From Planctomycetota bacterium (GTDB taxonomy: Bacteria > Planctomycetota > UBA8108 > UBA1146), in contig JAAZXB010000005.1 of NCBI GenBank assembly GCA_014240375.1, positions 64,297-128,296 of the forward strand: a stretch of DNA of 64,000 bases. The letters run 5' to 3'. The notes beneath the pieces are model-generated. The model was not told the DNA's origin. It searched no databases and saw only the letters and a program-made list of their open reading frames with translations. Both the position numbers and the translations under genes were made by a program. This document shows, in pieces, positions 34,131-53,066 of the stretch. The stretch's first letter is position 1, and each line of letters starts with the position of its first letter.

Positions 34131-34396
34131 CGAAAGTCTCCTTGCAGCGGAGCCACCATCGGTGCTCCGGGTAACGGGTCGTGTTGAAGTGGTCAGAATA
34201 CCCGATGGAGAACAGATCCGAAAGACGATGAAGAGCGTTGGAGAGGCGCTGCAGGCCATTTTTAGGGGGAAGGGGGTGACCTCGAGGACCATCTCGCCGA
34301 TGATCTGGCCACCGCAGCCTGCGGTGGCCGCGATCGACGGTTGCCGGCGCAAGATGGTCCACTGCAGGAACGGTTTGGGGCGGGGGGGAGTTCAAG

Positions 34397-36474: not shown

Positions 36475-37047
36475 TCAGAGCCGAAGAAACCACTGATGAA
36501 CCCGATCATCGCCGGTCAATTCGGGATGAAAGGTGCAGGCCACGCACCGGTCCTGGCGTACCGCCACCGCTTCCGATCCCAGGGTGGCGAGCACCTCGAC
36601 CGCCGGGGAGGACACGCCGATGCGAGGAGCGCGGATGAAGATCCCCTCCGATGTCCCGAGATCAGGGCCAGCGATCCACTCGATCGGTTCGATGAAGGAG
36701 TGGACCTGGCGACCAAAACCGTTTCGTTGGAATTCGACATCGATCAGGTTCCAGCGCGGTGGCGACTCCTGACACTCTCGACCCATCAGGATGGCACCAG
36801 CACAGGTACCCAGCAGAGCCAACTGTCCCGTTGCGACTCGTTGTGGAATTTGACTCGAGAGGGAGTGGAGTTGCAGCAGATGGTGAAGGGTCGTGCTCTC
36901 CCCACCGGGCAAGACGAGGTGTGTGATCTGATCGAGTTGGTCAGGGCGACGCAACTCGATCGGATCGACCCCGCAACGCGAGAGTGCCCGAAGGTGTGGT
37001 TCGACCGACCCTTGAAGTGCCAGTACTCCCGCACAAATTGCTGCCAA
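36475..37047 (-). CDS. pdxT: Pyridoxal 5'-phosphate synthase glutaminase subunit
   Basis: VLALQGSVEPH, HLVLPGGESTT, LLGTCAGAILM, FHPEL. Confidence 0.85.
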   Translation of the reverse strand: MAAICAGVLALQGSVEPHLRALSRCGVDPIELRRPDQLDQITHLVLPGGESTTLHHLLQLHSLSSQIPQRVATGQLALLGTCAGAILMGRECQESPPRWNLIDVEFQRNGFGRQVHSFIEPIEWIAGPDLGTSEGIFIRAPRIGVSSPAVEVLATLGSEAVAVRQDRCVACTFHPELTGDDRVHQWFLRL

Positions 37048-37049
37048 AG

Positions 37050-37943
37050 CTACCAGCCTCGCACCTGAAGGCGCTCGTCTTCGGGCAAACGGGTCGCATC
37101 GATGCCAGCCATCGCTGCACCCAGTCCGCTCGAAGCTTCGGCGAGTTGCACTGCATCATCGAAGTGGGCGGTGGCATGAACCATCGCCTTGGCGGTGAGC
37201 AGCGGATCCTCTGCCTTGAAGATACCGGATCCGACAAAGATCGCTTCGGCTCCGAGACGCATCACCAGTGCGGCGTCGGCAGGAGTGGCGATTCCACCGG
37301 CAGCAAAGTTAGGAACTGGAAGTCGACCTTCCTTTGCCACCTGGCAGACCAGTGTATAAGGGGCGCCCAGTTCCTTGGCGATGCTCATCCACTCTTCCGG
37401 GTCCGCCTGGGTCAGGGATCGAATTTGGCCTCGAATCAGTCTCAGGTGGCGTACCGCTTCGGTGACATCACCGGTTCCTGCCTCGCCCTTGGTGCGAAGC
37501 ATCGCGGCTCCTTCACCGATGCGACGAAGAGCTTCCCCGAGGTTGGTGGCTCCGCAGACAAAGGGCACCTTGAAGCGACTTTTTTCGATGTGATGGGCAT
37601 GATCGGCAGGGGTCAGCACCTCGGATTCATCGATGAAATCAACTTCGAGTGCTTGCAGGATTTCACCCTCGATGAAGTGGCCGATCCGGGCCTTGGCCAT
37701 CACCGGAATGTCGACGGTTTGCTGGATCTCTCGCACCTTGTCGACCGGTGACATGCGGGCGACTCCGCCGTCTTTGCGGATATCAGAGGGCACACGTTCC
37801 AGTGCCATCACGGCGACAGCCCCGGCCTGCTGGGCAATTCGGGCCTGTTCTGCAGTGGTCACGTCCATGATGACTCCGCCTCGGAGCATCTCGGCGAGCC
37901 CGACCTTGGTACGGAACTCTTCGGTGGATCCGATGCCCCGCAT
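37050..37943 (-). CDS. pdxS: Pyridoxal 5'-phosphate synthase lyase subunit
   Basis: 298 aa from ATG at 37943. [67 protein letters not shown]. Confidence 0.9.
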
Positions 37944-38418
37944 CGGTGTCGAGAATTGATCGTTCAAAGGGGCCCATCCTCTCTTTTTCGATGGGCGGAG
38001 CCACGAAGCACTCCGCCGGGAGATTCCAATCTTGCCCCTTGGGAGGCACAGATGCGAGTGGATCGATGCTCGATGGAGTCTCTTTCCGAGGGGCATACCA
38101 TCCGATACTCTGAGGGCCAGACCTACCGAACGAGGGGAAGATCTAAGGTGCCCGGGGAAATCTTCGGATGAATTCCGGAGTTGGGGACCAAGATGGAGAC
38201 CGATCCCCTGTGATCTGGCGGCGCGTGGTCGCTGGATCTATGTCGACGACTGGACCGCTCAGGAAGCCCAATTCAACGGTCCGCATGGATCAACTTTGAT
38301 GATCCATCGCGGTCGACAACGGTTCCGCCTCGCAGGTGCCCGAGTGAATCTCGGATCCGGCGACGACTGCACCGCTGGGGTCTTCTTCGAGCCAAAAGAC
38401 CGAAGGAAACTGCCCAAG

Positions 38419-39849
38419 ATGAAGTGCAACCGACTTTTTTCCAGAGGTGTTTCGAAGCGATCCGCCATCCAGTGCGGCGGCAGCCATCTACAACGGCTAC
38501 CGAGATGGCTGACCCTGCTCCTGGTCTCGCTGACAATGCTGTTGGTCTGGGGTCATCCCGGGACAGTGGAGGCACAGTTCTTTGAACGGGCGCTGGTGCT
38601 GGAAGGGGTGCATATCCCCGGTCCCGACGGAGGGGTGCTGGAAGATTCCAACATCATTCTGAGGGGCGGACGGATTGTCGAACTGGGACCCGATTCAGAC
38701 GCTCCCATGATGTCGAAAAAGCTCAAGGTGAAGGGACTCTTCGCCACCGCCGGACTGACCGATCTGTCCTCCACCCTGACCCTGGATGAGGTCCGCTCGA
38801 GCAGTGCGATTCACAGTGCCTGGGATGGTTTCGATCGATACGATTCTCAGCAGATTCTGCGCACCCTGGCCAGCGGCGTGACCAAGATCCACCTGATACC
38901 GATGGGACCTAGTGGCATCGTTGGACGAGTCAGTTCTCTGTCCCTCGGCAGTCGTGAAGAGGGCGGATACGGCATCTTGCACAGTGAAGATGTTGCGCTC
39001 TGCATCGACCTGAGCAGTGGCACACCCCTCGAGCGGATCCGCACCTATGAGAAGGTTCGTGGTGCCTTGAAGTCGGCGCAGAAGATGCGCGAGTCGTTGG
39101 ACGATTACACCTCTGATCTGGAGGAGTACATCGAAGATCTGGCGGAAGCCGCCAAGAAGAAGGCACAGGAGAAGGCCGAGGAGAAGGACAAAGAAAAAGA
39201 CGACAAGGACGACAAGGACGACAAGGCCGAGGACGGGGACGAGAAGGACGAGAAGGACGAGGAGGGCCCCAAGAAGCCGGATCGGCTGGAACGAGACCCC
39301 GCAGCGGAGATTTTGCTGCAAGTTCTCGATCACGAACTGCCGGTGATGATCACCGCACGTCGCAGCGCAGATCTGCAAAATGCCATCGATCTGATCGAGG
39401 AGTTTCAACTTTCGGCCATCCTTCGTGGTGCCGATGAAGCTCACCTGGTACTCGAGGCGCTGGCAAAACTGGAAAAAGTCTCGCTGTTGCTCGAGGTACC
39501 GCGCTCCTCGCTGACGCGCGGTGCGGGCCCCCGCAGAGATCCTCATCTGATCGCACAACTGGACGAAGAGGGAATTTCCTGGGCGGTGGGAAGCGGCGGC
39601 GAAAGTACTTCGCTGTGGCGGTCGATCCAGCAACTCTCTGGACAACTGTCGACAGCGTCTCCTCTGCCATTGGCTCTCGCTCAGGGAGCCCAGGGCCCCT
39701 TCGGAGGATGGCTGAGAAGAGGCGCAACAGAGGTGGTTCTGTGGGAGGGGAATCCAGCGGAGGACCCGCTGGCCCGACCCAATCGAGTCATCATCAACGG
39801 GACGGTGGTCTGGCAACGACCCTCCGGTACCCGTGAGGGGAGTTTCTGA
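38419..39849 (+). CDS. Amidohydrolase-fold protein 1 of a tandem array (secreted). No HxH motif. Contains a K/D/E-rich insert.
   Basis: AAGGAAA Shine-Dalgarno sequence then ATG at 38419. Signal-like LTLLLVSLTMLLVWGHPGTVEA. Insert EKDKEKDDKDDKDDKAEDGDEKDEKDEEG encoded by GACAAGGAC repeats. C-terminal amidohydrolase-family tail. Confidence 0.55.
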   Translation: MKCNRLFSRGVSKRSAIQCGGSHLQRLPRWLTLLLVSLTMLLVWGHPGTVEAQFFERALVLEGVHIPGPDGGVLEDSNIILRGGRIVELGPDSDAPMMSKKLKVKGLFATAGLTDLSSTLTLDEVRSSSAIHSAWDGFDRYDSQQILRTLASGVTKIHLIPMGPSGIVGRVSSLSLGSREEGGYGILHSEDVALCIDLSSGTPLERIRTYEKVRGALKSAQKMRESLDDYTSDLEEYIEDLAEAAKKKAQEKAEEKDKEKDDKDDKDDKAEDGDEKDEKDEEGPKKPDRLERDPAAEILLQVLDHELPVMITARRSADLQNAIDLIEEFQLSAILRGADEAHLVLEALAKLEKVSLLLEVPRSSLTRGAGPRRDPHLIAQLDEEGISWAVGSGGESTSLWRSIQQLSGQLSTASPLPLALAQGAQGPFGGWLRRGATEVVLWEGNPAEDPLARPNRVIINGTVVWQRPSGTREGSF

Positions 39850-40979
39850 TGAAGAGTGGTAACCGATGGTGGCTGTGGATACTGACCGGATGGATCGGTT
39901 GGTGCACGACGGTCGAGGGATCCGAGAACAGCGTGGTCATCCGCCCGGTCGCAGTGGTGGCTCCCGACGGTAGCATCTGCGAGCAGATGGCGGTGGTGAT
40001 TCACTCCGATGGGACCATCGCTGCGGTGATCCCGGCGGACCAGGCAGACCCGGCACTGACCACGGTCCACGCTGCGGCGGGATCGGTGCTCACCCCGGGG
40101 CTCCATGACCTGTTTGGAGCCCTCGGTTGTGGCCAGGACGCCTTGCTGGCGGGGACGGTCCTGTTCGATTCTCAACTCGATGCGGCGGCTGCCTTCGATC
40201 CGACCACTGGCGCACTCGAACGGGCTGCACGGCACGGGATTCTATACACCACGGTGGCGGCAGTGCCGAGCGGGATCCGCAATGGCAGCAGTGCCACATT
40301 CCTCTGCAAGAGTGATGCTACGGCTCACCCGGTGGCGGCTGGAAGACCGATGTACGCACTGGCCGATTCGGTCCTGCAGTCATCGAGAGAGCCGACCAGT
40401 CGATCGGCGATGGTCTCGTTGTGGAAGGACTTTATCGTCGAGGGAGCGGGCCAGAACAGGGATCCAGGAGTTCTCTTCTGCCCCGATGCGATCGATTTTC
40501 GCCAGTCCCTCTCTCTGCGCTGGAAATCCTTGCCGGTGCTGGTCCACCAGGGGGACGCACGATCTCCGGTGGAGCGGCTCGCCGGAAAAGGTGCGCTGAT
40601 GGTGGTGGGCCCCTTTCTCGAGGACGGCAATCCGGCAGCGGTCGCGACTGCAGTGCGGGCGGCGCGAACCGGAACTGAACTGGCCTTTCGCGGTGGCTTA
40701 CCCGCCGCTCCTGCAAACCACCTGAGAGGGAGTGCAGCCATCGCCGTGGCGGCTGGACTCGATGGAGATGCGGCGCGTAGAGCCCTCTTCAGCAACCCCG
40801 CGCGGGTGGTGGTGGGCCACGGCATCGGAGTGATCGAGCCGGGGGCTCGTGCCGACCTGGTGCTGTTTTCCGCCGATCCGCTCGATCCGGCTGCCCGGGT
40901 GCTCCAGGTCTGGCGCGGTGGCCAGCAGCTGGGGATGAATACTTTCGACTCGATCCGGGATCTGGGAGGAATTCGATGA
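39849..40979 (+). CDS. Amidohydrolase-fold protein 2 of the array (PGLHDLFGALG in place of the HxH motif)
   Basis: N-terminal beta-sandwich-like segment then TPGLHD. C-terminal GARADLVLFSADPLDPAARVLQVWRGG. Start overlaps the previous stop. Confidence 0.55.
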   Translation: MKSGNRWWLWILTGWIGWCTTVEGSENSVVIRPVAVVAPDGSICEQMAVVIHSDGTIAAVIPADQADPALTTVHAAAGSVLTPGLHDLFGALGCGQDALLAGTVLFDSQLDAAAAFDPTTGALERAARHGILYTTVAAVPSGIRNGSSATFLCKSDATAHPVAAGRPMYALADSVLQSSREPTSRSAMVSLWKDFIVEGAGQNRDPGVLFCPDAIDFRQSLSLRWKSLPVLVHQGDARSPVERLAGKGALMVVGPFLEDGNPAAVATAVRAARTGTELAFRGGLPAAPANHLRGSAAIAVAAGLDGDAARRALFSNPARVVVGHGIGVIEPGARADLVLFSADPLDPAARVLQVWRGGQQLGMNTFDSIRDLGGIR

Positions 40980-42565
40980 AACAGCAACCGATGAATCCGT
41001 CACCGATGATGACTTCTCTGGTGCGATGTACAGTGTGGCTCGCCATCGCATGGGGGTCGGCAATCCTCGCTCCGGCAGCAGTGCTGGCAGCGGCGGGAGA
41101 AGACACGGCCACACCCGCAGAGGTTCTCCGGGATGTGACGATCCGTGCGCAGCGGGCTCATATCGGCGATGGCCGGGTCCTCGAGAATGCTCTGATCCAG
41201 GTCAAGGATGGCATCATCGTGAGTGTCGTGGCCAATGGCACCGCTGCCGAGGGTGTCAACCTGCTGGAAGTTTCCGACATCACTCCGGGATTGATCGATG
41301 CGAACGCCAGGATCGACGTCGCCGATGCGATCTACTTTCCGGGAGAGGATCCGCGTTTGCAAATCCTCCGGGCGATGGGACTCGAAGAGCACTTTCACGG
41401 TGGCGATGTCTGTCCCTGCGGTACTACCTGTCCTGCCATGACTCTTCATGTTGCCGATGAGATGTGTCTGTACTGTGGCTGGCCCGATCACGACCCTCAC
41501 CCACACGATCCGATCGACGAATTGCTCGCTGGATCGCTCGCTGGATCGCTCGGTGGCGACCAGGCTGCAGGTGTCCCGGCGCCCAGTGGAGTCATCAACG
41601 AGCAATCGAGTGAGGTGGTCCCACACTTCGAGGTACTCGATGCCATCGATCAGGGATCCGATGATTTTGATCGCCTGCTCAAAGAGGGAGTGACCACCAT
41701 CTACGTCAGCCCCGATTCCTCGGCGGTGGTCGGTGCGCGAGGATCGCTGATGAAGACTGGTGGCCCACTCGCCTCCAGATATCTCGGTGCCGGAGCGGTG
41801 AAGGGGGTTCTCGGGAGCGACGCCTACCGCTATGGGAGTCGCAATCGCAGTCCCTTCCGTACCAATGTTTCGGTCTACACCAGAAGACCTGATTCTCGCA
41901 TGGGTGTGGCGTGGGTCTTCAGGAAGGCGTTTCACGATGCGCTCCTGAGAGCCAAAGGGGTCACTCCCAGCGGTGCGGATACTTCCAGTCCGAGTGCTTC
42001 CCGTGTTCTTTCGAGTGTGCTGGCGGGGGAGATCCCGTTGCGAATCCAGGCTCGTACCGGTCCCGATATCGAGACGGCATTTCGTCTCTGTGGAGAGTTC
42101 GGTGTCCGCTTCACCCTGGAAGATCCGGTCGAGGCGTGGAAGCGGATCGACCTGCTTTCCAGCAGTGGAGTGGACGTGGTCTTCGGGCCGGTGTTTGACG
42201 TACCCAGCGGCATCCTTGCGGGAACCAACGAGAGCCGCGAATCGAGACTCCACACCTTGCGAGATCTGGTCACTTCCGGAGTCGAGGTGTCGTTGAGCGC
42301 CCAGGATTTGAGGGGTGAAGAGGGTCTTTCCCGTCAGGTGATGCTGGCGATCCGACACGGAGTCGATCCGGCGATGGCGTTGAGACTGGTCACACAAAAC
42401 CCGGCCAAACTGCTCGGGATCGATCAGCAGGTTGGAACGATTGAAACGGGTAAGAGAGCGGATCTGGTGGTGTGGAGTGGAACTCCCTTCTCCTCCCTTT
42501 CGAGAATCGAAAAGGTATTGCATGAGGGAGAGTTTTCCTTTGTCCGAGGTGGAGTCAAAAAATGA
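40976..42565 (+). CDS. Amidohydrolase-fold protein 3 of the array, with a Cys/His-rich insert
   Basis: Signal peptide. TPGLIDANARIDV. Insert CPCGTTCPAMTLHVADEMCLYCGWPDHDPHPHD. C-terminal GKRADLVVWSGTPF. 4-nt overlap with the previous gene. Confidence 0.6.
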   Translation: MKQQPMNPSPMMTSLVRCTVWLAIAWGSAILAPAAVLAAAGEDTATPAEVLRDVTIRAQRAHIGDGRVLENALIQVKDGIIVSVVANGTAAEGVNLLEVSDITPGLIDANARIDVADAIYFPGEDPRLQILRAMGLEEHFHGGDVCPCGTTCPAMTLHVADEMCLYCGWPDHDPHPHDPIDELLAGSLAGSLGGDQAAGVPAPSGVINEQSSEVVPHFEVLDAIDQGSDDFDRLLKEGVTTIYVSPDSSAVVGARGSLMKTGGPLASRYLGAGAVKGVLGSDAYRYGSRNRSPFRTNVSVYTRRPDSRMGVAWVFRKAFHDALLRAKGVTPSGADTSSPSASRVLSSVLAGEIPLRIQARTGPDIETAFRLCGEFGVRFTLEDPVEAWKRIDLLSSSGVDVVFGPVFDVPSGILAGTNESRESRLHTLRDLVTSGVEVSLSAQDLRGEEGLSRQVMLAIRHGVDPAMALRLVTQNPAKLLGIDQQVGTIETGKRADLVVWSGTPFSSLSRIEKVLHEGEFSFVRGGVKK

Positions 42566-44139
42566 TGTCGAGAGTCTCAGGAAGCAAGGAACCGATGTTG
42601 CCTAATATGATGCTGACCCCACGTCCAGTGGTGTCCCTGGTAGCCGCGCTAATACTGCTCTTCAGCACACAAGTCGTACCCGCTGGAGAATCCAAGCTGG
42701 CCTTGACCGGAGGCACGGTGATGACCGTCTCGGGTGAGAGTATCGCGGGTGGAGTGGTTCTCATCGAAGATGGAATCATCACAGCAGTGGGAACTGCCGA
42801 AACGGAGATTCCATATGATGCGATGGAGGTGGACTGTACGGGGATGATCCTGGCACCGGGATTTGTCGATCCGCACAGTTCCGATGGACTCGATATCCCC
42901 AACGAGAATCTTCCTTCCGCTCCCTTCGTCGATGTCTTCGATGCGCTCGATCCTTCTCGTTTCTTCTTCGAGGATTCTCTGCGCAATGGAGTCACCAGCA
43001 TTCATGTCATGCAGGGCAACAACTGCGTGGTCGGCGGCGTCAGCCGGATCGTCCATCCGATTGGGCTCACACCTCATGAGATGTCGAGGCAAGCAGGGGT
43101 GGCACTCAAACTCTCCACCTCACCGCGTCGGGGCTACGGCCGGATGCGTCAACTGGCAGAACTTCGAGAGGTGTTCGAAGAATACGATCGGTGGCGAGAA
43201 AACCTGGCCGAGAGTCGTTACGAGCAAGAAGCGGACAAGGAAGATGACGATGACAGCGATGCACTGCCACCGGAGGAAAGTCGCAGCAAGGGGCAGGAAC
43301 TGATCCGTGACGAGGATCTCGATGACCAGCACCGTCATCTCGCACACTTGATCGACGGTCGACTCGGCGCCTGGATCTACTGCGGGTCTGCCACCGATGT
43401 GGCTCCCGCGCTGGCCCTGGTGGCCGAACGAGACTGGAAAGATCGTGCAGTTCTGGTGCTGGCAGGGGATGCCCATCTGGCGATCGAGGAGATCAAGGAG
43501 GCGGGCATCGATGTGGTTCTCGATTCCGATCTGATCCATCGCAAGAGAGATGCCCTCACCGGGGATGTGGAAGAGACCTTCATCCCCGATGTGTATCGTC
43601 GTGCTGGAGTACGATTTGCCATCCAGCCTTCTCGCTCTGGCGCCATGCCGGAGAGATTCATCGGTTACCAGGCGGCACGACTGGTGCGATCCGGCATGGC
43701 ACCCGCCGCGGCTTTGCGAATCGTCACCTTGGGTGCTGCGGAGATCTGTGGAATCGATGATCGTTACGGTTCGATCGAGGTCGGCAAGATCGGCAACATC
43801 GTGATGTGGACCGGCGATCCGCTCGACCTGAATTCATGGGTACAGAAGGTCTTCGTCGAGGGGATCCTCGCCTATGACCTGGAGAAAGATGCTCGACTCG
43901 AACGTCTTTTCCCTGAGGAACCTGAGCCAGAGGAAGCACCCGCTCCACTCGAGGATGGGGGCACCTCCGAGGATGGCGAGGACGCAAAGCCTGCGGAAGA
44001 GACTCCGGAAAAAACCGCTGGAGAAGCACCCGCCGAGGATGGCGAGCCGCTGGAGGAGAAATCCTCCGAGAAGGGGGAAGCCCCCGCCGACAAGCCGGCG
44101 GATCCGCCCAAGGAATCGTCGGTTGCGGGAGGAGAATAG
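42562..44139 (+). CDS. Amidohydrolase-fold protein 4 of the array, with an acidic C-terminal tail
   Basis: Signal or TM segment at the N-terminus. APGFVDPHSSDGL (a single His). C-terminal GKIGNIVMWTGDPLD, then a Glu/Pro/Ala-rich tail. Confidence 0.6.
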   Translation: MMSRVSGSKEPMLPNMMLTPRPVVSLVAALILLFSTQVVPAGESKLALTGGTVMTVSGESIAGGVVLIEDGIITAVGTAETEIPYDAMEVDCTGMILAPGFVDPHSSDGLDIPNENLPSAPFVDVFDALDPSRFFFEDSLRNGVTSIHVMQGNNCVVGGVSRIVHPIGLTPHEMSRQAGVALKLSTSPRRGYGRMRQLAELREVFEEYDRWRENLAESRYEQEADKEDDDDSDALPPEESRSKGQELIRDEDLDDQHRHLAHLIDGRLGAWIYCGSATDVAPALALVAERDWKDRAVLVLAGDAHLAIEEIKEAGIDVVLDSDLIHRKRDALTGDVEETFIPDVYRRAGVRFAIQPSRSGAMPERFIGYQAARLVRSGMAPAAALRIVTLGAAEICGIDDRYGSIEVGKIGNIVMWTGDPLDLNSWVQKVFVEGILAYDLEKDARLERLFPEEPEPEEAPAPLEDGGTSEDGEDAKPAEETPEKTAGEAPAEDGEPLEEKSSEKGEAPADKPADPPKESSVAGGE

Positions 44140-44140
44140 G

Positions 44141-46876
44141 ATGCGCATTTCTCCGATCTGGCCGGGAATCCTCTGCTTGCTGATGTGGCTACCGGCCGTC
44201 TCACTCGAGGCGGCAGACGGCTTCATCTTGCGGGCGGCTACGATACACACCGGGGTTCGAGTCATCGAAGATGGAGCCATCGTGGTGCGCGATGGAAAGG
44301 TGGTCGAGGCCGGTCGGTGGGAGGATCTGGCGCCGGCACTGGCGACCAGCGACTTGCCGCTGATCCACTGGCCCGACGCCTATGTGACGCCGGGCTGGGT
44401 CGCGGCTTCGAGCAATCTGGTGGCCCCACACCCCTCGCCGGAATCGATTCATGCCGACTTCAGGGCGGCGGATGGGTACGACCGTTATGGCGACCATCGT
44501 CCGCTACTCGAGACCGGAGTGACCACCGCCCATCTGAGTCCAGGAGAGCATCGATTGCTCAGTGGCCAGGGTGCCGTGGTGAAACTGGTCGGCGCTGCGG
44601 ATCAGCGAATCCTCCGGGTCAGTGCCGATCTCTCCCTCTCCTTGACCGATGCCGTCGATGGAGCGAGGCCCTTGCTCAGGATTCCCTTCCCTGCATCCAG
44701 CGATGTGGCCATCACCGCCCCGACTCCCCAGCGACCGAGGAGTCGCATTGGTCGACTCCTGGCGCTCAGTGAAGCGCTGGAGAGGTCGAACCAAGACCCG
44801 GCCATCCATGGAGGGCTAGCGGAAGCGTGGAGTTCTGGATTGCCGGTGCGGGTCGCCGCCAGCAAGGCATCCGAGATCCTCGCAGCGATCTCCTTCCTTC
44901 GTGGGAAAGATCGTGACGGATACATCGTGGGAGGTACCGAGATCGGACAGGTAGCCGCGGCAGTGGCCGCCGCAGGGATTCCACTGGTGCTGCGCATCCA
45001 ACCGGTCGGCGGGGATGTCGGGTTCACCGATCGTGAACCGGTGGAGGGCTTGACCGATTGGCCACAGCTGGGCACCGATACTCTGCTGGCACTGGCACCG
45101 CCGAAGGATGACCTGAGGCAGTTGCGATGGGCGCTGGTGCAGGCGGCTCCTCACATGGAAAGACCCGATGATGCGATCGCCCTGGTCACTCATCATCCGG
45201 CTCGAATCCTTGGAGTCGAGGATCGGGTCGGGAGCCTCGAAGCGGGTGCGGATGCAGACCTGGTGATCTGGAATGAAGGACCGTGGAAAGTCACGGCACA
45301 TCCTCTCGAGGTGATTGCCGACGGGGCGGTGGCCTGGCAACCGCAGACGGAACCGACCACGGTGATTCGTGCGGAGACGATCTGGCTCTCTCCGGAGGAT
45401 CGTATCGACGGCGGTGAGGTTCTGATCGAGCAGGGCAAGATCGCCGCGGTGGGGAGAAGAGTGCCGCATCCACCTCACTCGAGAGTGATCGACGCAGGAT
45501 CGGGGAGTTTTCTCGTGCCCGGTTTCATCGATAGTTACGGACACCTCGGATTACGAGGGGATACGGGTTCCTCCGGCACTGGAGATCGCCTCTACCGTCT
45601 GATCGGTGCATCCGATGAGCCGGAGCACCGTGTGGCGAGATCGGGTGTGACCTCCCAGTTGCTGACCCCGATGAGATTGCAGCGCGGTGCAGCCACTGCG
45701 GTGGTGGTCAAGACATCCGGCAGAACCCGATCGCAGCGAGTGCCACAACCGGTCTCTGTACTGTTACTGGAGGCCAGTGGCCATCCCGATGAAGCGCTTG
45801 GCGGAATCTCGAGACTGATGGACCAGGGCAAGAAATATCTCGAGTCGTGGAAGAAGTACGAGAAGAGTCTCGCCGAATGGAGAAAGAAGAAGGCCGCTGG
45901 AGAAGAGATCGAACAGAAGGAGGAAGAGGGCGAGGAGGTAGTGGTCGAGCAGCAGGGGCCGGATCCCCTCACCGGGGTCTGGGAATTGACCATCTCCGGT
46001 GGACCGATCCCGGAACCAGAGACGGCCAAGATCTCGATCAAACTCGATGGTACGGAGTTCGAGGGCCGAGTCGTCGATCCGATCCCTCCGTTCCCGGTGA
46101 GAGTGGTCGGCACACTCGATGGGACCACCATCGAGGCGACCATCGAGATCGAAGATGGCGTTCTACCTGGAGTGCCGAAAATCAAAGCCGAACTGGAAGG
46201 TGAAGATTCGTTGGTGGGAACCATCTCGCTGATGCAATTCAGCGTAGATGTGGTGGGTACTCGTTCCAGCAAGGAAGCGAAATCGTTCAAGGTGGAACGG
46301 CGCAAGAAACGCGATGAAGATGGACGACCCAACGCTCCCCGCGTCAATCTTGCGCTGGAGCCGGTTCGAAAGGTCCTCGAGGGACAGATTCCGGTGGTGG
46401 TGACTCCCAGTGGACTGGAAGTGGCCACCAAGGTGATCGAGTACTTTTCCGAGAAGAAGATTCCTTTGACCCTCCGGCTGGGTCAGGAGATGCGTCTATA
46501 CCGTGACCTGCTGGCGGAGAAATCTGTATCGGTCATCTTGCCAGCAGAATCGAGTTTTACCATCCAGCGGAAGTCTTTTGCCCCGGGCAATTTCCTGAGT
46601 CGCTCCGGCATCAATGTGGCGTTTCAGAGCCAAGCTTCCGATGGCGCTCGTTCCCTGCAACAGCAGGCGATGCAAGCGGTCGAGCGTGGAATGAGTGCGG
46701 ATGCTGCGTTGCATGCACTGACTGGCGGAGCAGCCCGGGCACTGGGGGCCGCCGATCGGGTGGGCTCGATCGAGAGCGGTCTCGATGCAGACCTGTTGAT
46801 CTGGAATGGACATCCGATGGAGGCGGGAAGTCGCCTTCAAAGGGTCTTCATCCATGGAGAGGAGGTCCCCAGATGA
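44141..46876 (+). CDS. Amidohydrolase-fold protein 5 of the array: two fused amidohydrolase-like modules
   Basis: 911 aa from ATG at 44141. Signal peptide MRISPIWPGILCLLMWLPAVSLEA. Module a ends GADADLVIWNEGPW. Module b begins VPGFIDSYGHLGL and ends GLDADLLIWNGHPMEAGSRLQRVFIHG. Confidence 0.6.
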   Translation: MRISPIWPGILCLLMWLPAVSLEAADGFILRAATIHTGVRVIEDGAIVVRDGKVVEAGRWEDLAPALATSDLPLIHWPDAYVTPGWVAASSNLVAPHPSPESIHADFRAADGYDRYGDHRPLLETGVTTAHLSPGEHRLLSGQGAVVKLVGAADQRILRVSADLSLSLTDAVDGARPLLRIPFPASSDVAITAPTPQRPRSRIGRLLALSEALERSNQDPAIHGGLAEAWSSGLPVRVAASKASEILAAISFLRGKDRDGYIVGGTEIGQVAAAVAAAGIPLVLRIQPVGGDVGFTDREPVEGLTDWPQLGTDTLLALAPPKDDLRQLRWALVQAAPHMERPDDAIALVTHHPARILGVEDRVGSLEAGADADLVIWNEGPWKVTAHPLEVIADGAVAWQPQTEPTTVIRAETIWLSPEDRIDGGEVLIEQGKIAAVGRRVPHPPHSRVIDAGSGSFLVPGFIDSYGHLGLRGDTGSSGTGDRLYRLIGASDEPEHRVARSGVTSQLLTPMRLQRGAATAVVVKTSGRTRSQRVPQPVSVLLLEASGHPDEALGGISRLMDQGKKYLESWKKYEKSLAEWRKKKAAGEEIEQKEEEGEEVVVEQQGPDPLTGVWELTISGGPIPEPETAKISIKLDGTEFEGRVVDPIPPFPVRVVGTLDGTTIEATIEIEDGVLPGVPKIKAELEGEDSLVGTISLMQFSVDVVGTRSSKEAKSFKVERRKKRDEDGRPNAPRVNLALEPVRKVLEGQIPVVVTPSGLEVATKVIEYFSEKKIPLTLRLGQEMRLYRDLLAEKSVSVILPAESSFTIQRKSFAPGNFLSRSGINVAFQSQASDGARSLQQQAMQAVERGMSADAALHALTGGAARALGAADRVGSIESGLDADLLIWNGHPMEAGSRLQRVFIHGEEVPR

Positions 46877-48111
46877 GGACCTGCACCTGGATTATACTGG
46901 CACTATTCATCGTCACCACGGCCGGCGATTTGTTCGCAGCGGCGGAGGTTCACGCTTTCCGTGTGGGCAAGGTCGTCACCATGGATGGCGATGACCGGGT
47001 GATCAACAACGCAATAGTGATCGTCACCGATGGCAAGATCACAGCGGTGGGGCGCTCCCGAGATGTTGAAGTTCCGCCAGGAGCTACTGTCATCGAAAAA
47101 CCCCAGCTGTGGCTGGTTCCGGGGATGGTCGAATGTCATAACCACACCGGTGGTTCCAGTCCCGACCTCCATGATTACATCTACCTGACCAACCCAGGGC
47201 TTCGAACACTCGAGGCGATCGTTCCCGATGGGGTGGAGATGGAACGAGCTCGTGCCGGCGGCGTGACCACTGTGCTGACGATTCCAGGCAGTGGAAACAA
47301 CATGTCAGGATTCGGCACCATCCTCAAGACCGCCGGAACCGGTAGCGTCGAGGAGGCGGTCTTGAAGGCTCCCGGCTCGTTGAAGATCGCCCAGGCGGGG
47401 AACCCCGAGCGATACTTCTATGGGGTGGGGCGATCGTTCATGAACTTCAACACCCGGCAGACGCTGCGCAAGGCGATGGAATACCACAAGGCGCGGACTG
47501 CATGGGAGCAGGGCGAACGGGCGGATGAACCTCCCAAGGATCTGCACTGGGAAGAGTTCAGGGCGCTGTTTCGTCGAGAAACCGTGGCCTCGGTTCATAC
47601 CCAGATCTATCAGGTGCTGATGACCACCGTCAAGATGGTCGCCGGTGAGTTCGGAATTCGCACGGTGCTCGACCACTCCACCTTCGATGCCTGGAAGGTG
47701 GCGCGGCTGGTCAATGAGGATCAGAGTATTTACACCATCAATGGTCCGCGGCAACTTCATTACGACCGGACCCAGCGTCGCATCATGGGCAACGCTGCGA
47801 GGTGGTGGCAGGGAGGCGTTCGCCAGCTCGGGATCAATACCGACTCTCCGGTGGTGCCGCAGGAGGAACTGTTCTACCAGGCATCGATGGCTTGCTACTA
47901 CGGCTGGACTCCTTACGAGGCTCTCAAGGGAGTCACCAGGATTCCAGCAGAAGCCCTGATGATGGATCACCGCCTCGGCAGCATCACAGTGGGACTCGAT
48001 GCCGATTTCTGTCTCTGGACTGGAGACCCCATCGACCCGCGATCATCTTGTGAGATGACGGTGATCGACGGCCAAGTGACGTACGACGCCAACGGGAAGA
48101 GGGTCTTCTGA
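46873..48111 (+). CDS. Amidohydrolase-fold protein 6 of the array. The only member retaining a His-x-His motif (VPGMVECHNHTGG), so possibly the catalytic member.
   Basis: Signal peptide MRTCTWIILALFIVTTAGDLFAAAE. HxH present. C-terminal GLDADFCLWTGDPIDP. 4-nt overlap upstream. Confidence 0.65.
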   Translation: MRTCTWIILALFIVTTAGDLFAAAEVHAFRVGKVVTMDGDDRVINNAIVIVTDGKITAVGRSRDVEVPPGATVIEKPQLWLVPGMVECHNHTGGSSPDLHDYIYLTNPGLRTLEAIVPDGVEMERARAGGVTTVLTIPGSGNNMSGFGTILKTAGTGSVEEAVLKAPGSLKIAQAGNPERYFYGVGRSFMNFNTRQTLRKAMEYHKARTAWEQGERADEPPKDLHWEEFRALFRRETVASVHTQIYQVLMTTVKMVAGEFGIRTVLDHSTFDAWKVARLVNEDQSIYTINGPRQLHYDRTQRRIMGNAARWWQGGVRQLGINTDSPVVPQEELFYQASMACYYGWTPYEALKGVTRIPAEALMMDHRLGSITVGLDADFCLWTGDPIDPRSSCEMTVIDGQVTYDANGKRVF

Positions 48112-49460
48112 TGAAGCGCCGCGACGACTGTCGACCACTGATTCGGTTCTTGCTGTTGGTATTGTTGTGGCAACCACTGGCTCTGTTTGGAGCGTCCGAC
48201 GATGTTCAACGAGTCACGGTGATCCGTGCTTCTCGGGTGATCACTGGCACCGGTGAGGTGTTGGAGCCGGGTGAAGTGGTGATCGATGAGGGCAAGATCA
48301 CGCTGGTGGGCAACCAGCTGGAGTATCCGAAGAATTCCCGCATCATCGATGCTCCAGGCCAGACCTTGATGGCAGGGATGATCCTGGCGAGATCGAGTCA
48401 TGGACTTCAGAGCTTGTCGAAAAACGGAACCAACTGCAACTTGTCGCCGCTCAGGCAACTGAACGAAGAATTGATGCCATGGGAGGACTTTCTCGAGGCG
48501 GGCTTCGTTGCGGCATCTTTGGTTCCCTCAGGGTCGGGATTCCCGGGTCACGCAGTAGTGGTGAAGACGACACCAGACGATTCCGATCGAATCCTCAAGG
48601 CGGCCGCCTATCTCCCTCTCAACGGCAGATCTCCGAGAGGGATCTACACCTCGGTCGGGAAGGGCTTCGATGTGGCTCGCGGCGAGATCGAAAAGGTCAA
48701 GAAGGCGCGAGAGAAGTGGGACCAGGAGCAGGAAGCGGCGAAGAAGAAGGAACAAGAGGAGGCCAAGAAGGATGCTGGAGATGCCGCCGCAGGTGACAAA
48801 AAGAGCGACAAGCCCGCGACGGAAAAAGCAGACGATGGAAAGCCCAAGGAGTTTCAGCCACCAGAGATGAATCCTGCGGTGATCGCACTGGTCAAGATTC
48901 TCGAGGAGAAGGAGGATGCGCTTCCCATCGTATTTTCCGCCCAGACTCCTGGTTTGATCCTGCATCTCGATTCTGCCATCGCGAGTGTCAAGGAGCTGAA
49001 GGATCGAGATCCCCTGTCGATCTTCCAGTTGCCGGAGTCTCGCACCGGTGCATTTCACGAGGTTGTAGAACTTCTCACAGAGCGTAAGGCCACGGTTCTG
49101 GTCCCCCCTGCGCTCAGTGCGTTTCCGGATACTTACTCGAGAATCCACATTCCAGTGGTGCTGGCCAGGGGTGGTTGCACCGTGATCACGCTACCTGCAA
49201 CAGACAATTTTGCGGGAATGAGAGGGGTACCGGCGAAACTTGCCGAGTTGGTTCGCTACGGGCTTTCGCGCGAGGCCGCCCTCGCCTCGGTGACTCTGGA
49301 AGCGGCGCGATTGCTGGGACTCGATGATCGGATGGGAACAATTGAGGAGGGGAAAGAGCCTCACTTCGTTCTGTTCGACGCCGATCCCCTGGAGCCAGGT
49401 GCGCGGGTGATGAAGACCATCATCGCAGGCAAAGTGGTGTGGGATCGAGAGGATCGATGA
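48111..49460 (+). CDS. Amidohydrolase-fold protein 7 of the array, with a K/E-rich insert
   Basis: Signal peptide. APGQTLMAGMILARSSHGL. Insert KKKEQEEAKKDAGDAAAGDKKSDK. C-terminal GKEPHFVLFDADPLEPG. Confidence 0.55.
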   Translation: MKRRDDCRPLIRFLLLVLLWQPLALFGASDDVQRVTVIRASRVITGTGEVLEPGEVVIDEGKITLVGNQLEYPKNSRIIDAPGQTLMAGMILARSSHGLQSLSKNGTNCNLSPLRQLNEELMPWEDFLEAGFVAASLVPSGSGFPGHAVVVKTTPDDSDRILKAAAYLPLNGRSPRGIYTSVGKGFDVARGEIEKVKKAREKWDQEQEAAKKKEQEEAKKDAGDAAAGDKKSDKPATEKADDGKPKEFQPPEMNPAVIALVKILEEKEDALPIVFSAQTPGLILHLDSAIASVKELKDRDPLSIFQLPESRTGAFHEVVELLTERKATVLVPPALSAFPDTYSRIHIPVVLARGGCTVITLPATDNFAGMRGVPAKLAELVRYGLSREAALASVTLEAARLLGLDDRMGTIEEGKEPHFVLFDADPLEPGARVMKTIIAGKVVWDREDR

Positions 49461-50851
49461 TGATCAAAGACTTCAAATCTTCCCTGGTATTGCTGGCGGT
49501 TGCGCTGCTCGTGACCGACATCCCCTTCACTTCGGGAACTGTGGTACAGATCGCAGGAGTGGCCGAGGCGCAAGATCCTCCTCGTCGCCGCCGAGGTCGT
49601 CGACCACAACCGCCTCCACCCACACCTGTACCCGATGCGCCGGAGGAAGAACTCGACGATCCGCAAGGGGAGTACCTGGCGATCGAGGGAGCCACGATAC
49701 ACACCATCACCGGATCGGTGATTCGCGGCGGTACCGTGCTCTCTAAAGATGGCAAGATCGTCTCGATCGGGGTCGACATCGCGGTCCCCGATGAAGCGGA
49801 GAAGATCGATGCCAGCGGTCATCATCTCTATCCCGGACTGGTAGCGTTTCGATCCAATGGACTGGTCGGATCGGGAGAGGCGGAGTTGTCACAGGATCCA
49901 TTTGCACTGGGAACGGTCACAGGACTCGCGGCAGGGATCACCACTACGTGGAATGGTGGTCGAGTCACCAAGTTGATTCGTGGACAGGTCACCGATCTGA
50001 CCTTAAGACGTCAGTCCTTCATCTCGATCAGTTATCGCAGTGGTAATCCGGGCAAGAAGAGAGAGTTGAGAGAAGCATTCGAGAAGGTCCAGGAGCATCT
50101 CAGAAAAGTGGAGCAACATGCCCAGGAGAAGAAGGATAATCCGGATGCGAAGGCTCCCGATGATAAGTGGATCCGCGGAACCTATGCCACGGCTCGTTCC
50201 CTCTTGCTGGGGGATAAAGTAGCGATCTCCCGGGTATCCACCATCTTCGATCTGCGCGAAATCTGCCAGTTGGCCCGTCGATTTGGCTTCAAGATGATCA
50301 TCGAAGGGGCGGAGGAAGCATGGATCGAGCCGGGTCTACTGGCGCGATGCGGTGCTTCCGTTGTCCTCACACCTCGCTCTCGGAGGGATCGAGATGAGAG
50401 TCGAGCGGCCGCAGGAGGATCGAGCATCGAGAACGCAAAGATCCTTCACGAGAGTGGGGTTCCCATTTCCATCATGCCAGCGAGCGCAGGGATCGCTCTG
50501 TGGGGACTGGCGGGACGAGACCTCTCACACCTTCCACTGGAAGCGGCCTTTGCGGTTCGAGGTGGGCTTCCCGAGGATGCCGCGGTGGAGTCGATCACCA
50601 TCGAGCCCGCCAGGATGCTTGGCGTTGCCGATCGCATCGGATCGATCGAGGTGGGAAAAGATGCCGATTTCATCATCATGGATGGAGATCTGCTGTCTTA
50701 CATGTCGCATGTCCGCTGGGCCATCATCGATGGCAAGGTTCAGTACGACAAGATGGAAGAAGGATTACTCGACCATATCCGACCGGATGGAGAAGATGAT
50801 CCACCAGCGCCAGAAGACCACTGGCCGCGGAGACTGGGGGATCCTCTTTAA
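49457..50851 (+). CDS. Amidohydrolase-fold protein 8 of the array, with a Pro/Arg-rich N-terminal linker
   Basis: Start overlaps the previous stop (ATGA). Signal peptide, then QDPPRRRRGRRPQPPPPTPVPD. YPGLVAFRSNGL. C-terminal GKDADFIIMDGDLLS. Confidence 0.6.
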   Translation: MMIKDFKSSLVLLAVALLVTDIPFTSGTVVQIAGVAEAQDPPRRRRGRRPQPPPPTPVPDAPEEELDDPQGEYLAIEGATIHTITGSVIRGGTVLSKDGKIVSIGVDIAVPDEAEKIDASGHHLYPGLVAFRSNGLVGSGEAELSQDPFALGTVTGLAAGITTTWNGGRVTKLIRGQVTDLTLRRQSFISISYRSGNPGKKRELREAFEKVQEHLRKVEQHAQEKKDNPDAKAPDDKWIRGTYATARSLLLGDKVAISRVSTIFDLREICQLARRFGFKMIIEGAEEAWIEPGLLARCGASVVLTPRSRRDRDESRAAAGGSSIENAKILHESGVPISIMPASAGIALWGLAGRDLSHLPLEAAFAVRGGLPEDAAVESITIEPARMLGVADRIGSIEVGKDADFIIMDGDLLSYMSHVRWAIIDGKVQYDKMEEGLLDHIRPDGEDDPPAPEDHWPRRLGDPL

Positions 50852-51008: not shown

Positions 51009-53066
51009 ATGCCAGCATCCCCCAGATCGCCGATCTCATCCATTCTGCTCGCTGCAGTGGTTGCGCTGATCGGTCTGATCTTGCCCTACGAGGAATTACC
51101 CGCACAGTGTTCCACCGGGGAAGTGGAAATCTTCGGGATCAGCGGTGGCGATTACCTCGGCCGATCGGTGGCCATCTCTGGAGGTCGATTATTCATCGGC
51201 GCCATCGGAGATGATGCGGGGGGAACCCTCAGCGGAAGCGTTCGAATTTACCGCAAAAGTGACAGCAGTTATCAACTCGAACAACTGTTGATCGGATCCG
51301 CTGAAGCACAGATCGGTGCTGCACTGGCGGCCGATGATTCGATGCTCGCGATCGGCGCAGTCGGTTCCGGGACCATCCAGATGTGGCAAAGAGACCGATT
51401 TGGCTGGAACCTGATCCAGGAACTCAGTGATCCACAGGGGCAGCAAGGCGATGGCTTTGGTTCTGCACTTTCACTCTCTGGCGACATTCTGGCGGCTGGC
51501 AGTCCATACTTTCAGTTTGGTTCTGAGCCGGTCGGCTGCGTCACCCTGTGGGTGAATGATCCGAACAACGGCTGGGTTCTTCAGGACCGATTGATGGCGA
51601 TCGATCGAGTTCCCGGCGATCAGTTTGGCACTTCTCTCGACCTCTCCGATTCATTGACTCTGCTGGTTGGGGCTCCGGGAAGAGATCATCTCGGACCCGA
51701 TACTGGAGCTGCATACCTCTTCTCCGGTGGCCAAGATGGTTGGATAGAGGAGCTCTCGATCGGAACCGGGGTTGCCAATCCAGGCGATCGTCTGGGAACG
51801 GCAGTGGCCATCTCGGATGATCATCTGCTTCTCGGTGCACCCTACTCCGATCTCGCAGGATCCGCCGCAGGAGCGGTCGCCAACTACCATCGAGTGGGCG
51901 AGCTGTGGGTGATCGGGCCTCATCTGGTACCTCCATCTGGAGCATCCGGATGTGCATTCGGCGCGGTGCTGGCACTGTCCGGCACGGTGCTCTCGGTCGG
52001 GGCTCCCACCGATACCGGAAGCGAAGCATTCCCTTCCGGTTCCATCTCTACCTATCGCTGGCAAGGAGACTGGCAACTGGAGGGAGTACGAATCGGCAAT
52101 TCGAGTTCTTTCCTCGGGTCGTCGGTGGCGGTCGATCATGGAGTCGTCATTGCGGGAGCACCGTTCGATTCGGAGATGGCCGCAGTGGGAGGAAATATCA
52201 CCCTCGATGTCTATGGTGATGACGATTGCGATCAAGATGGAGTGCTGGATTCCTGCGCCATCGCCCAGGGGATCGCAGAGGACTGCGATCTCGATGGAAT
52301 CGTCGATGGATGCGGAATCGCCGCCGGAGTCTCGGTCGATTGTGATGGAGATTTGATTCCAGACAGTTGTGCGACCGCCGAAGGATGGGTCGCCGATTGT
52401 GATGGCGATGGAATCCCCGATAGTTGCGCAGTCGCAACCGGACTGGTGACCGATTGTGATGACGATGGGATTCCAGATCCATGTCAGGAAGATTGCAATC
52501 AGAACTTGATTCCCGACAGTTGCGAAATTCTGGAAACGGGAGCCATCGACTGTGATCTCGATGGAGTGATCGATGCCTGTCAACTCATCAGCGGCAGCGA
52601 GACCGATTGCAACTCCAACGGAACCCTCGACTCCTGTGAGCCCGATTGTGATGCGGATGGGATCCCCGATGAATGCGAGATCAGTTCCGGAGCCGCAGAT
52701 GATTGCGACGGAAACCAGATACCGGACCTGTGCGATCTCGCCGATCCAGCCAATGACACCAACGGGAACGGTCAAATCGATCCCTGTGAGCCGCAGTTCA
52801 TCCGGGGAGATGCCGATGCCGTGGAAGGCGTTCGCCTCGCCGATGCGATACTGCTGATCGGAAGGGTGTTCGGAGAAGTCTCGATCCCATTTTGTCAGGA
52901 AGCGGCAGACGCCAATAGCGATGGTTTTCACGACATCTCGGATGGACTCTACCTGCTGATGTACCTGTTCCTCGGTGGTGAAGCGCCCTCGGCACCGTTT
53001 CCAGAGTGCGGGATCATCGGTTCCGATGCCGCCTTCACCTGCGACTTCCACCCTGCCTGCCCCTAG
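51009..53066 (+). CDS. Secreted FG-GAP (integrin-alpha-like beta-propeller) repeat protein with a tandem Cys-Asp repeat region and a C-terminal dockerin-like pair
   Basis: Signal peptide. Repeated FG...GxxGD/GDxxGxSV blades (IFGISGGDYLGRSVA, IGAIGDDAGG, and others). Then about 10 copies of DCDxDGIPDxC. C-terminus RLADAILLIGRVF ... DANSDGFHDISDGLYLLMYLF plus Cys tail. Confidence 0.6.
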   Translation: MPASPRSPISSILLAAVVALIGLILPYEELPAQCSTGEVEIFGISGGDYLGRSVAISGGRLFIGAIGDDAGGTLSGSVRIYRKSDSSYQLEQLLIGSAEAQIGAALAADDSMLAIGAVGSGTIQMWQRDRFGWNLIQELSDPQGQQGDGFGSALSLSGDILAAGSPYFQFGSEPVGCVTLWVNDPNNGWVLQDRLMAIDRVPGDQFGTSLDLSDSLTLLVGAPGRDHLGPDTGAAYLFSGGQDGWIEELSIGTGVANPGDRLGTAVAISDDHLLLGAPYSDLAGSAAGAVANYHRVGELWVIGPHLVPPSGASGCAFGAVLALSGTVLSVGAPTDTGSEAFPSGSISTYRWQGDWQLEGVRIGNSSSFLGSSVAVDHGVVIAGAPFDSEMAAVGGNITLDVYGDDDCDQDGVLDSCAIAQGIAEDCDLDGIVDGCGIAAGVSVDCDGDLIPDSCATAEGWVADCDGDGIPDSCAVATGLVTDCDDDGIPDPCQEDCNQNLIPDSCEILETGAIDCDLDGVIDACQLISGSETDCNSNGTLDSCEPDCDADGIPDECEISSGAADDCDGNQIPDLCDLADPANDTNGNGQIDPCEPQFIRGDADAVEGVRLADAILLIGRVFGEVSIPFCQEAADANSDGFHDISDGLYLLMYLFLGGEAPSAPFPECGIIGSDAAFTCDFHPACP

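Follow-up and report, generated by a model that had tools for sequence, protein, structure and literature searches.

In a 64,000-nucleotide stretch of the genome of a Planctomycetota bacterium of the UBA1146 lineage (contig JAAZXB010000005.1; the whole stretch is hereafter the window), we analyzed an operon of eight plus-strand genes, g1 to g8 (38419-50851), whose products comprise nine modules of the amidohydrolase fold, with a complete set of metal ligands in only one of them, g6. With a probability of roughly 0.55, we infer that these products form an exported hetero-oligomer of ~0.45 MDa, in which g6 would be the only catalytic subunit and the eight dead paralogs would play structural roles, its assembly, stoichiometry, location and chemistry being deduced from the genes. 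A sequence-only reading of the same DNA had proposed such a complex, and this is the best-supported interpretation of the evidence below: it is favored by the conserved gene order, the overlaps between genes, the selection acting on them, the natural fusions, a homo-oligomeric closest relative of known structure (3OOQ), and the rule that related multi-module chains carry no more than one liganded module. Both the co-inheritance with an active paralog and the purifying selection on dead paralogs that characterize an enzyme-plus-pseudoenzyme system are found here. A chance origin of nine consecutive paralogous modules is ruled out. The features of the operon, with the g6 ligand positions retained by each module, are the following:

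38419..39849, + strand: g1, exported amidohydrolase-fold pseudo-module, 476 residues from ATG 38419 (open reading frame (ORF), hhalign); 0/6 ligands kept
39112-39276, + strand: K/D/E-rich insert of g1
39849..40979, + strand: g2, exported pseudo-module, 376 residues, the shortest and least conserved (ORF, sub-threshold Amidohydro_3, hhalign); only H233 kept, in 80 % of orthologs
40976..42565, + strand: g3, exported pseudo-module, 529 residues (ORF, Pfam, hhalign); only K276 kept
41390-41509, + strand: Cys/His-rich insert of g3, HFHGGDVCPCGTTCP...CLYCGWPDHDPHPHD
42562..44139, + strand: g4, exported pseudo-module, 525 residues (ORF, Pfam, hhalign); only H105 (84 %) and K183 (90 %) kept
43915-44136, + strand: acidic, low-complexity C-terminal tail of g4
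44141..45355, + strand: g5N, pseudo-module, residues 1-405 of a 911-residue fusion, bearing the only signal peptide of that protein; 0/6 ligands kept
45356..46876, + strand: g5C, pseudo-module, residues 406-911, with a 37-residue helix and a beta-rich insert; only H63 kept
45959-46285, + strand: beta-rich insert of g5C, ~110 residues (g5 residues 607-715)
46873..48111, + strand: g6, the sole module with the full binuclear-metal ligand set, predicted catalytic subunit
47137-47139, 47143-47145, 47383-47385, + strand: codons of g6 ligands H89, H91 and K171
47596-47598, 47674-47676, 47842-47844, + strand: codons of g6 ligands H242, H268 and D324
48111..49460, + strand: g7, exported pseudo-module, 449 residues (ORF, Pfam, hhalign); only D365 kept (92 %)
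48696-48848, + strand: K/E/D-rich insert of g7
49457..50851, + strand: g8, exported pseudo-module, 464 residues (ORF, Pfam, hhalign); 0/6 ligands kept
49568-49669, + strand: disordered stretch behind the g8 signal peptide, basic then acidic, PRRRRGRRPQPPPP...EEELDD

Fold and metal ligands of the nine modules

From 80 related loci we assembled one ortholog family per module and aligned its profile with that of the g6 family by hhalign. All eight other modules align with it at probabilities of 99.9-100 % over 354-393 columns (g1 at 99.88 % over 383 columns, g2 at 99.96 %, and g3, g4, g5N, g7 and g8 at 100 % each). The common superfamily fold claimed earlier thus extends over the full length of every module, including g1 and g2, which do not pass Pfam: the Amidohydro_1 and Amidohydro_3 models (PF01979/PF07969) match g3-g8 above their cut-offs in the C-terminal third only, the Amidohydro_3 match of g2 is sub-threshold, and the Pfam scan of g1 returned no match. 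Pairwise identities among the modules are 16-27 % and roughly equidistant; hence, the duplications are old. In an AlphaFold2 (AF2) model of the two-module g5 (predicted local distance difference test (pLDDT) 88.8, predicted template modelling score (pTM) 0.76), g5N and g5C are separated by a linker of 6 residues, and a helix (549-585) and strands (612-710) are formed in g5C. Foldseek searches with this model recover amidohydrolases exclusively, with 3OOQ at the top (E 3e-22, TM(target) 0.70) and others at ~1e-10; 3OOQ is also the best sequence match to g5. The AF2 model of g6, built on a 20-sequence alignment, was too poor for analysis of the active site (pLDDT 58).

The six ligands of g6 (H89, H91, K171, H242, H268 and D324) do not vary among 20 diverse orthologs, and across the 81-member family they are 99-100 % conserved. 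This HxH/K/H/H/D set aligns with that of 3OOQ, and we take the site to be of the binuclear, carboxylated-lysine type. By profile alignment, the other modules keep 0-2 of the six positions, and the strand-5/strand-6 His and strand-8 Asp of mononuclear members are also absent outside g6. In most of these families the former ligand columns vary even among orthologs, which indicates that the ligands have been lost, not shifted; the pocket positions of g1, g2, g5N and g8 lack conservation from one ortholog to the next. The observation in the sequence-only reading that an intact HxH is confined to g6 therefore extends to the remaining ligands, and the possibility it had raised against itself, that the ligands are merely displaced, fails on alignment. 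Throughout, the phrase "one catalytic member" refers to the single canonical metal site.

These alignments bear directly on the proposal that all nine modules are active and work independently as enzymes in a catabolic pathway, their metal ligands being simply displaced. Degradative clusters can arise from tandem paralogous hydrolases, and Escherichia coli NagA is active despite lacking HxH; however, the full-barrel profile alignments, with 0-2/6 ligands outside g6, contradict this proposal, and we consider it hardly credible.

Gene order, coupling and selection across Planctomycetota

The eight adjoining or overlapping ORFs translate cleanly, and the earlier description of their junctions is borne out: TGATG overlaps of 1 nt occur at 39849 and 48111, ATGA overlaps of 4 nt at 40976, 42562, 46873 and 49457, and g4 and g5 are separated by a 1-nt gap at 44141, with a GGAGG-like ribosome-binding site contained in the upstream gene at each junction. 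The start of g1 is ambiguous (ATG 38419 or ATG 38299), and a gene caller run on an identical contig places that of g8 at 49460, as against 49457. The precursors, all of them acidic, sum to 446 kDa. A scan for sigma-70 promoters and terminators gave no score above those of shuffled sequences, and an Rfam scan of the window had no matches; hence, no riboswitch offers a clue to the substrate. Contigs identical or near-identical to the window derive from marine metagenomes and Planctomycetota metagenome-assembled genomes (MAGs).

When one genome per GTDB species was scanned, at least 180 g6 relatives were recovered; the patterns used were selective for close orthologs of g6, so that this number is a lower bound, and no phylum-wide claim is drawn from it. 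Of these loci the best 80, from as many GTDB species, were retained, and each of their ORFs was classified against the window proteins. The order g1-g2-g3-g4-g5(N~C)-g6-g7-g8 recurs in ~70 loci and is kept in essentially every sufficiently long one, which disposes of a scattered distribution of these genes. By their labels, the MAGs that carry it belong to Pirellulales, Planctomycetales/Planctomycetaceae and Phycisphaerae; one isolate genome has it as well, and at least two classes are represented. A cultured carrier with a complete genome is "Phycisphaerales bacterium ac7" (L085, CP159477.1). Across loci, identity is 27-50 % for the pseudo-modules and 55-86 % for g6. The flanking genes (PdxS, FG-GAP, AddAB) are shared only inside the window's own clade, indicating that the eight genes are an autonomous, self-contained unit. 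Across the relative loci the flanks contain no conserved transporter, regulator or maturation factor; urease-type accessory genes (UreA/B, UreDEFG) or unrelated partner subunits are missing from the neighborhood, and across lineages no accessory gene is conserved. The Bacillota label of one locus (L012), which shares 85 % identity with the window, is probably wrong.

Across the loci, the prevailing arrangement is a start/stop overlap of 4 or 1 nt, e.g. of 4 nt at 63/77 g5/g6 junctions and of 4 or 1 nt at 66/76 g7/g8 junctions. Natural fusions are seen as well. The two modules of g5, recognized as a fusion in the sequence-only reading, are fused in every ortholog. In a separate marine lineage (L087, L089; GCA_002695115.1) g1~g2~g3 form one polypeptide of 1283-1324 residues, giving [g1g2g3][g4][g5][g6][g7][g8], i.e. 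the same nine modules in the same order from six genes. In these fused proteins (P0290, P0397) the g2-like middle module has HHKH at 4/6 ligand columns, in which it differs from the g2 of the window and, judged by its sequence, looks part-way through the loss of its metal site. In a UBA1146 MAG, g4 and g5 form a single ORF of 1472 residues with three modules per chain (L018, 5804-10222), which could be a real fusion or reflect a stop codon lost in assembly. P0539 (1146 residues, g5C reading into g6) still contains the g6 signal peptide, looks like a frameshift or merge, and was not counted as a fusion; the anomalous g8 of 1042 residues and g5 of 1365 residues in L031 and L080 are artefacts of upstream ORF extension.

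Three pairwise comparisons with relatives of rising distance yield ratios of nonsynonymous to synonymous divergence (omega) of 0.05-0.08 for g6 and 0.08-0.28 for the pseudo-modules (g1 0.18-0.27; g2 0.21-0.28). By this measure all eight genes are under purifying selection, strongest on g6, and the pseudo-modules are not decaying. In line with this, 33 % of positions are at least 90 % identical in the g6 family and 9-19 % in the others. As a separate observation, a comparison of the window with a close relative, L008, gives synonymous divergences (dS) that differ ~7-fold along the operon (g4 0.07; g6 and g8 0.26; g7 0.48), which suggests between-strain recombination inside it.

The same data speak to whether the eight non-liganded modules might be independent exported binding proteins or non-metal enzymes of a g6 pathway, held together by co-regulation with no stable association. 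In keeping with this, g3, g4 and g7 have conserved polar residues where some of the ligands used to be, each gene has an apparent signal peptide (by a hydrophobicity heuristic), and LigI provides the precedent of a superfamily member that works without a metal. Nevertheless, it leaves the unconserved pockets of g1, g2, g5N and g8 unaccounted for, the strict order, overlap coupling and recurrent fusions exceed the needs of co-regulation, and the nearest relative is an obligate-looking oligomer; accordingly, we judge it unlikely.

Export signals, inserts and neighboring genes

In line with the signal peptides that the sequence-only reading had noted on most of the genes, a hydrophobic segment was recognized by this heuristic at the N-terminus of 80-90 % of the orthologs of each gene, often with an AxA-like site behind it (for g1, a signal-like N-terminus is seen in 26/33 orthologs). 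On reading the N-termini, no twin-arginine or lipobox pattern was evident. The inserts reported earlier, namely the K/D/E-rich, Cys/His-rich, acidic-tail and PRRRRGRRP segments, could all be located. K/E/D-rich hairpin extensions are seen in g1, g4, g7 and g8; the CxC...C...CxxCG(W/F)P pattern of g3 occurs in most but not all orthologs, and the Arg/Pro-rich-then-acidic stretch near the N-terminus of g8 recurs in many but not all, including distant ones. The beta-rich insert of g5C matches nothing in Pfam; comparable G-x-W...G-repeat segments lie between the modules of the three-module proteins P0284, P0330, P0336 and P0368, and on sequence grounds it is a conserved, unclassified accessory domain of the clade. 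We speculate that these elements (the charged extensions, the CxC...CxxCG segment, the beta domain and the g8 N-terminus) could function in gating, tethering or metal handling.

That eight of nine modules are non-catalytic, that every product is apparently exported, and that long charged low-complexity inserts and tails abound would also suit a mainly structural, CRMP-like scaffold of the envelope or periplasm, built from enzyme-derived subunits and with g6 catalysis as a secondary or regulatory property. We regard this as quite improbable: no other member is nearly as constrained as g6, and the g6 ligands are all invariant, an argument for catalysis as the function under selection.

The operon is embedded among housekeeping genes (EF-G, IleRS, FeoB, PdxS and an AddAB-like pair), its flanks in the window coding for PdxS, beta-ketoacyl-synthase-like, thioredoxin-like and FG-GAP proteins and the AddAB-like pair. 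The neighbors are:

31166-33136, - strand: 656-residue polyferredoxin-like (Fer4) protein, unrelated to the operon
33174-34352, - strand: thioredoxin-like protein, unrelated to the operon
34740-36428, - strand: 562-residue beta-ketoacyl-synthase-like protein with an extended N-terminus, unrelated to the operon
36984-37751, + strand: 255-residue ORF upstream of g1, without a family; most likely a shadow ORF, as it overlaps the clear PdxS gene
37050-38096, - strand: PdxS
51009-53066, + strand: FG-GAP repeat protein, next after g8 in the clade of the window

In the fused-variant lineage, a shorter FG-GAP_3 protein comes after g8 (L089, 21822-23351), and weaker FG-GAP homologs take this place in L027, L029, L030 and L051; none was found in the Phycisphaerae loci. 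This gene may be an occasional accessory or a coincidence, the latter being possible because FG-GAP proteins are abundant in planctomycetes.

Relatives, origin and comparison with known systems

An exhaustive g6 search of 1.84 billion representative proteins (50 %-identity representatives) recovered 8897 relatives at E<=1e-3. Beyond the orthologs, these include many chains of 830-1590 residues with two or three modules, whose clusters, from Armatimonadota and Planctomycetota MAGs, are named only "amidohydrolase family protein". In 150 representative relatives each module was scored at the six ligand columns as liganded (C) or not (p), giving the following architectures: C, 42; p-C-p, 33; C-p, 18; p-C, 8; p-p, 12; p-p-p, 6. 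None of the 150 has two liganded modules in a chain. The usual presence of a C module follows from seeding the search with the catalytic module; the constant lack of a second one is unexplained by seeding.

Such chains suggest an alternative in which the operon specifies several smaller assemblies (e.g. g1-g2-g3, g4-g5 and g6-g7-g8), only the last being enzymatic, which would mirror the p-C-p proteins. Three-module chains are the commonest multi-module relatives, and there are natural fusions of g1~g2~g3, of g5N~g5C and, in one MAG, of g4~g5. Moreover, g3/g4 is the loosest junction (34 % within -20..+5 nt), and one locus has g4-g8 without g1-g3 (L043, 5755-14376; CP070666.1). The latter lies on a complete 5.5-Mb MAG chromosome labelled Gemmatimonadota, where the 447-residue ORF upstream is not amidohydrolase-like, and is either a split or truncated operon or a mislabelled bin. 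Yet, nearly all loci contain the eight genes together and in one order, sub-assemblies devoid of a catalytic module would need a separate rationale, and the matrix of hhalign scores shows no first/middle/last periodicity. Sub-assemblies hence appear rather unlikely, and on the same matrix we dropped the triplication of a p-C-p gene as the origin of the nine modules.

The closest relative of known structure, 3OOQ, is a structural-genomics entry, "amidohydrolase" of Thermotoga maritima MSB8, with 10 chains deposited. It is the best sequence match to g6 (E 8e-41), aligning over the full length (residues 49-406), including a helical-hairpin insert between strands 4 and 5. In a 2026 preprint, 3OOQ is classed among the dihedral homomers of a benchmark set whose complexes have 10 to 30 chains; ten chains with dihedral symmetry imply a D5 homodecamer, as a crystal-derived assembly. 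The 3OOQ family is 60-70 % conserved across Thermotogota, Dictyoglomi and Caloramator, and is the lone amidohydrolase gene in its loci. In Thermotoga and Dictyoglomus a gene of 378-391 residues, matching no Pfam or NCBIfam family, lies upstream of the 3OOQ-type gene on the same strand (L090, 3978-5153; L091, 4864-6000); it abuts the amidohydrolase gene in Dictyoglomus, and an EamA gene intervenes in Thermotoga. It may be a conserved partner of the 3OOQ-type enzyme.

Under the favored hetero-oligomer interpretation, one translationally coupled mRNA would specify the eight paralogs (nine modules), all related to a binuclear-metal amidohydrolase of the 3OOQ type and exported by Sec, and all eight products would assemble outside the cytoplasm, presumably in the periplasm, as a single particle of ~0.45 MDa. 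The g6 subunit, with the only metal centre, would perform the hydrolysis, likely of an amide and probably of a peptide-like substrate. The dead modules would descend from once-identical neighbors in a homo-oligomeric ancestor: in its exported descendants the neighbors of the active subunit would have turned into dead paralogs, either fused to it (the two- and three-module proteins) or encoded beside it (the nine-module operon), and would now constitute a fixed, non-interchangeable frame, with lineage-variable charged, Cys-rich and beta-rich inserts that may gate, position or recognize the substrate.

Several observations weigh against this interpretation. Nine modules do not fit the ten positions of a D5 decamer, so the architecture is not simply inherited from 3OOQ. 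The moderately conserved residues at some former ligand positions of g3, g4 and g7 may, as far as sequence goes, mark a ligand-binding or non-metal catalytic role for these modules. The loose g3/g4 junction and the g4-g8 locus count against one nine-module particle, and export was judged by the hydrophobicity heuristic only. On the side of the substrate, no NCBIfam equivalog is attained by any module of the window, and the surroundings of the 3OOQ-type genes in Thermotoga and Dictyoglomus did not hint at a function. The best score against NF051886 (cog1228 Xaa-Pro dipeptidase/Arg-Lys carboxypeptidase) is that of g6, 70.5 bits against a cut-off of 500; the name imidazolonepropionase (HutI) comes from the JGI annotation, and against TIGR01224 (cut-off 298 bits) g5 scores 85 bits summed over its two modules and g6 35 bits.

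Neither the operon nor tandem amidohydrolase modules nor UBA1146 turned up in the literature covered, most subscription journals lying outside it. The fold and the enzyme-plus-pseudoenzyme principle are already known; as far as we can tell, what is new is their nine-paralog, single-active-site, order-conserved form. If the products do form one particle, it would rank among the most subunit-diverse paralogous enzyme complexes in bacteria. It would then offer a tractable case of the transition from a homo-oligomer to an obligate hetero-oligomer whose subunits are mostly dead, be the cause a constructive-neutral ratchet or newly gained roles in gating and recognition. The analysis also defines a large uncharacterised clade of 3OOQ-type enzymes, two- and three-module proteins and nine-module operons, which databases call "amidohydrolase family protein" or "imidazolonepropionase-like", when most of its modules are not enzymes. 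For the biology of planctomycetes, the implication is a conserved machine that is exported and whose genes lie within a housekeeping region of the chromosome.

Among known systems, 3OOQ shares with the operon the HxH/K/H/H/D set (of g6) and the helical hairpin between strands 4 and 5, but it is a protein of ~385 residues without a signal peptide, encoded by a lone gene, and a homo-oligomer in which every subunit is liganded and dead paralogs are absent. The two- and three-module "amidohydrolase family proteins" (P0272, P0279, P0284/NUL82615.1 of Armatimonadota) belong to the same clade as the operon and resemble it in combining one liganded with one or two dead modules and in their signal-like N-termini, charged linkers and beta-rich insert; they differ in that the modules, at most three, are in one chain (one such protein, P0268, is alone in its locus). 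The nearest functionally characterised relatives are the cog1228 peptidases (the Arg/Lys carboxypeptidase Cc2672, 3MTW; the prolidases Sgx9260b/c, 3FEQ/3N2C and 3BE7/3DUG), which have a binuclear centre with a carboxylated Lys. Unlike the operon products they are homo-oligomeric and without pseudo-subunits, and g6 scores far under the NF051886 cut-off; that they hydrolyze peptide bonds is the sole basis for our guess at an amide or peptide substrate.

Amidohydrolase-fold pseudoenzymes are exemplified by the inactive dihydroorotase (DHOase)-like PyrC' of Pseudomonas aspartate transcarbamoylase (ATCase) and by CRMP/DPYSL. As proposed for the operon, a dead subunit of this fold is kept there as a structural or regulatory partner; unlike in the operon, there is one type of pseudo-subunit, it is cytoplasmic, and the enzyme partner is unrelated or missing. 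A bolder proposal, possible but doubtful in our view, is that a fully asymmetric assembly of nine non-interchangeable modules with one active site arose, following export, from a cytoplasmic 3OOQ-like D5 homo-oligomer, with its gene order fixed before the Planctomycetia/Phycisphaerae split and with the two- and three-module proteins of other phyla as intermediate grades of the same ratchet. It would be a bacterial counterpart of the evolution of the proteasome and CCT: in the beta ring of the eukaryotic 20S proteasome 3 of 7 subunits are active, and CCT/TRiC is likewise paralog-diversified. Those complexes are eukaryotic and have unrelated folds, and a ring geometry is not implied for the operon products; the parallel is no more than an analogy, which lies in the passage from a homo-oligomer to paralogs in fixed positions, of which a subset is catalytic.

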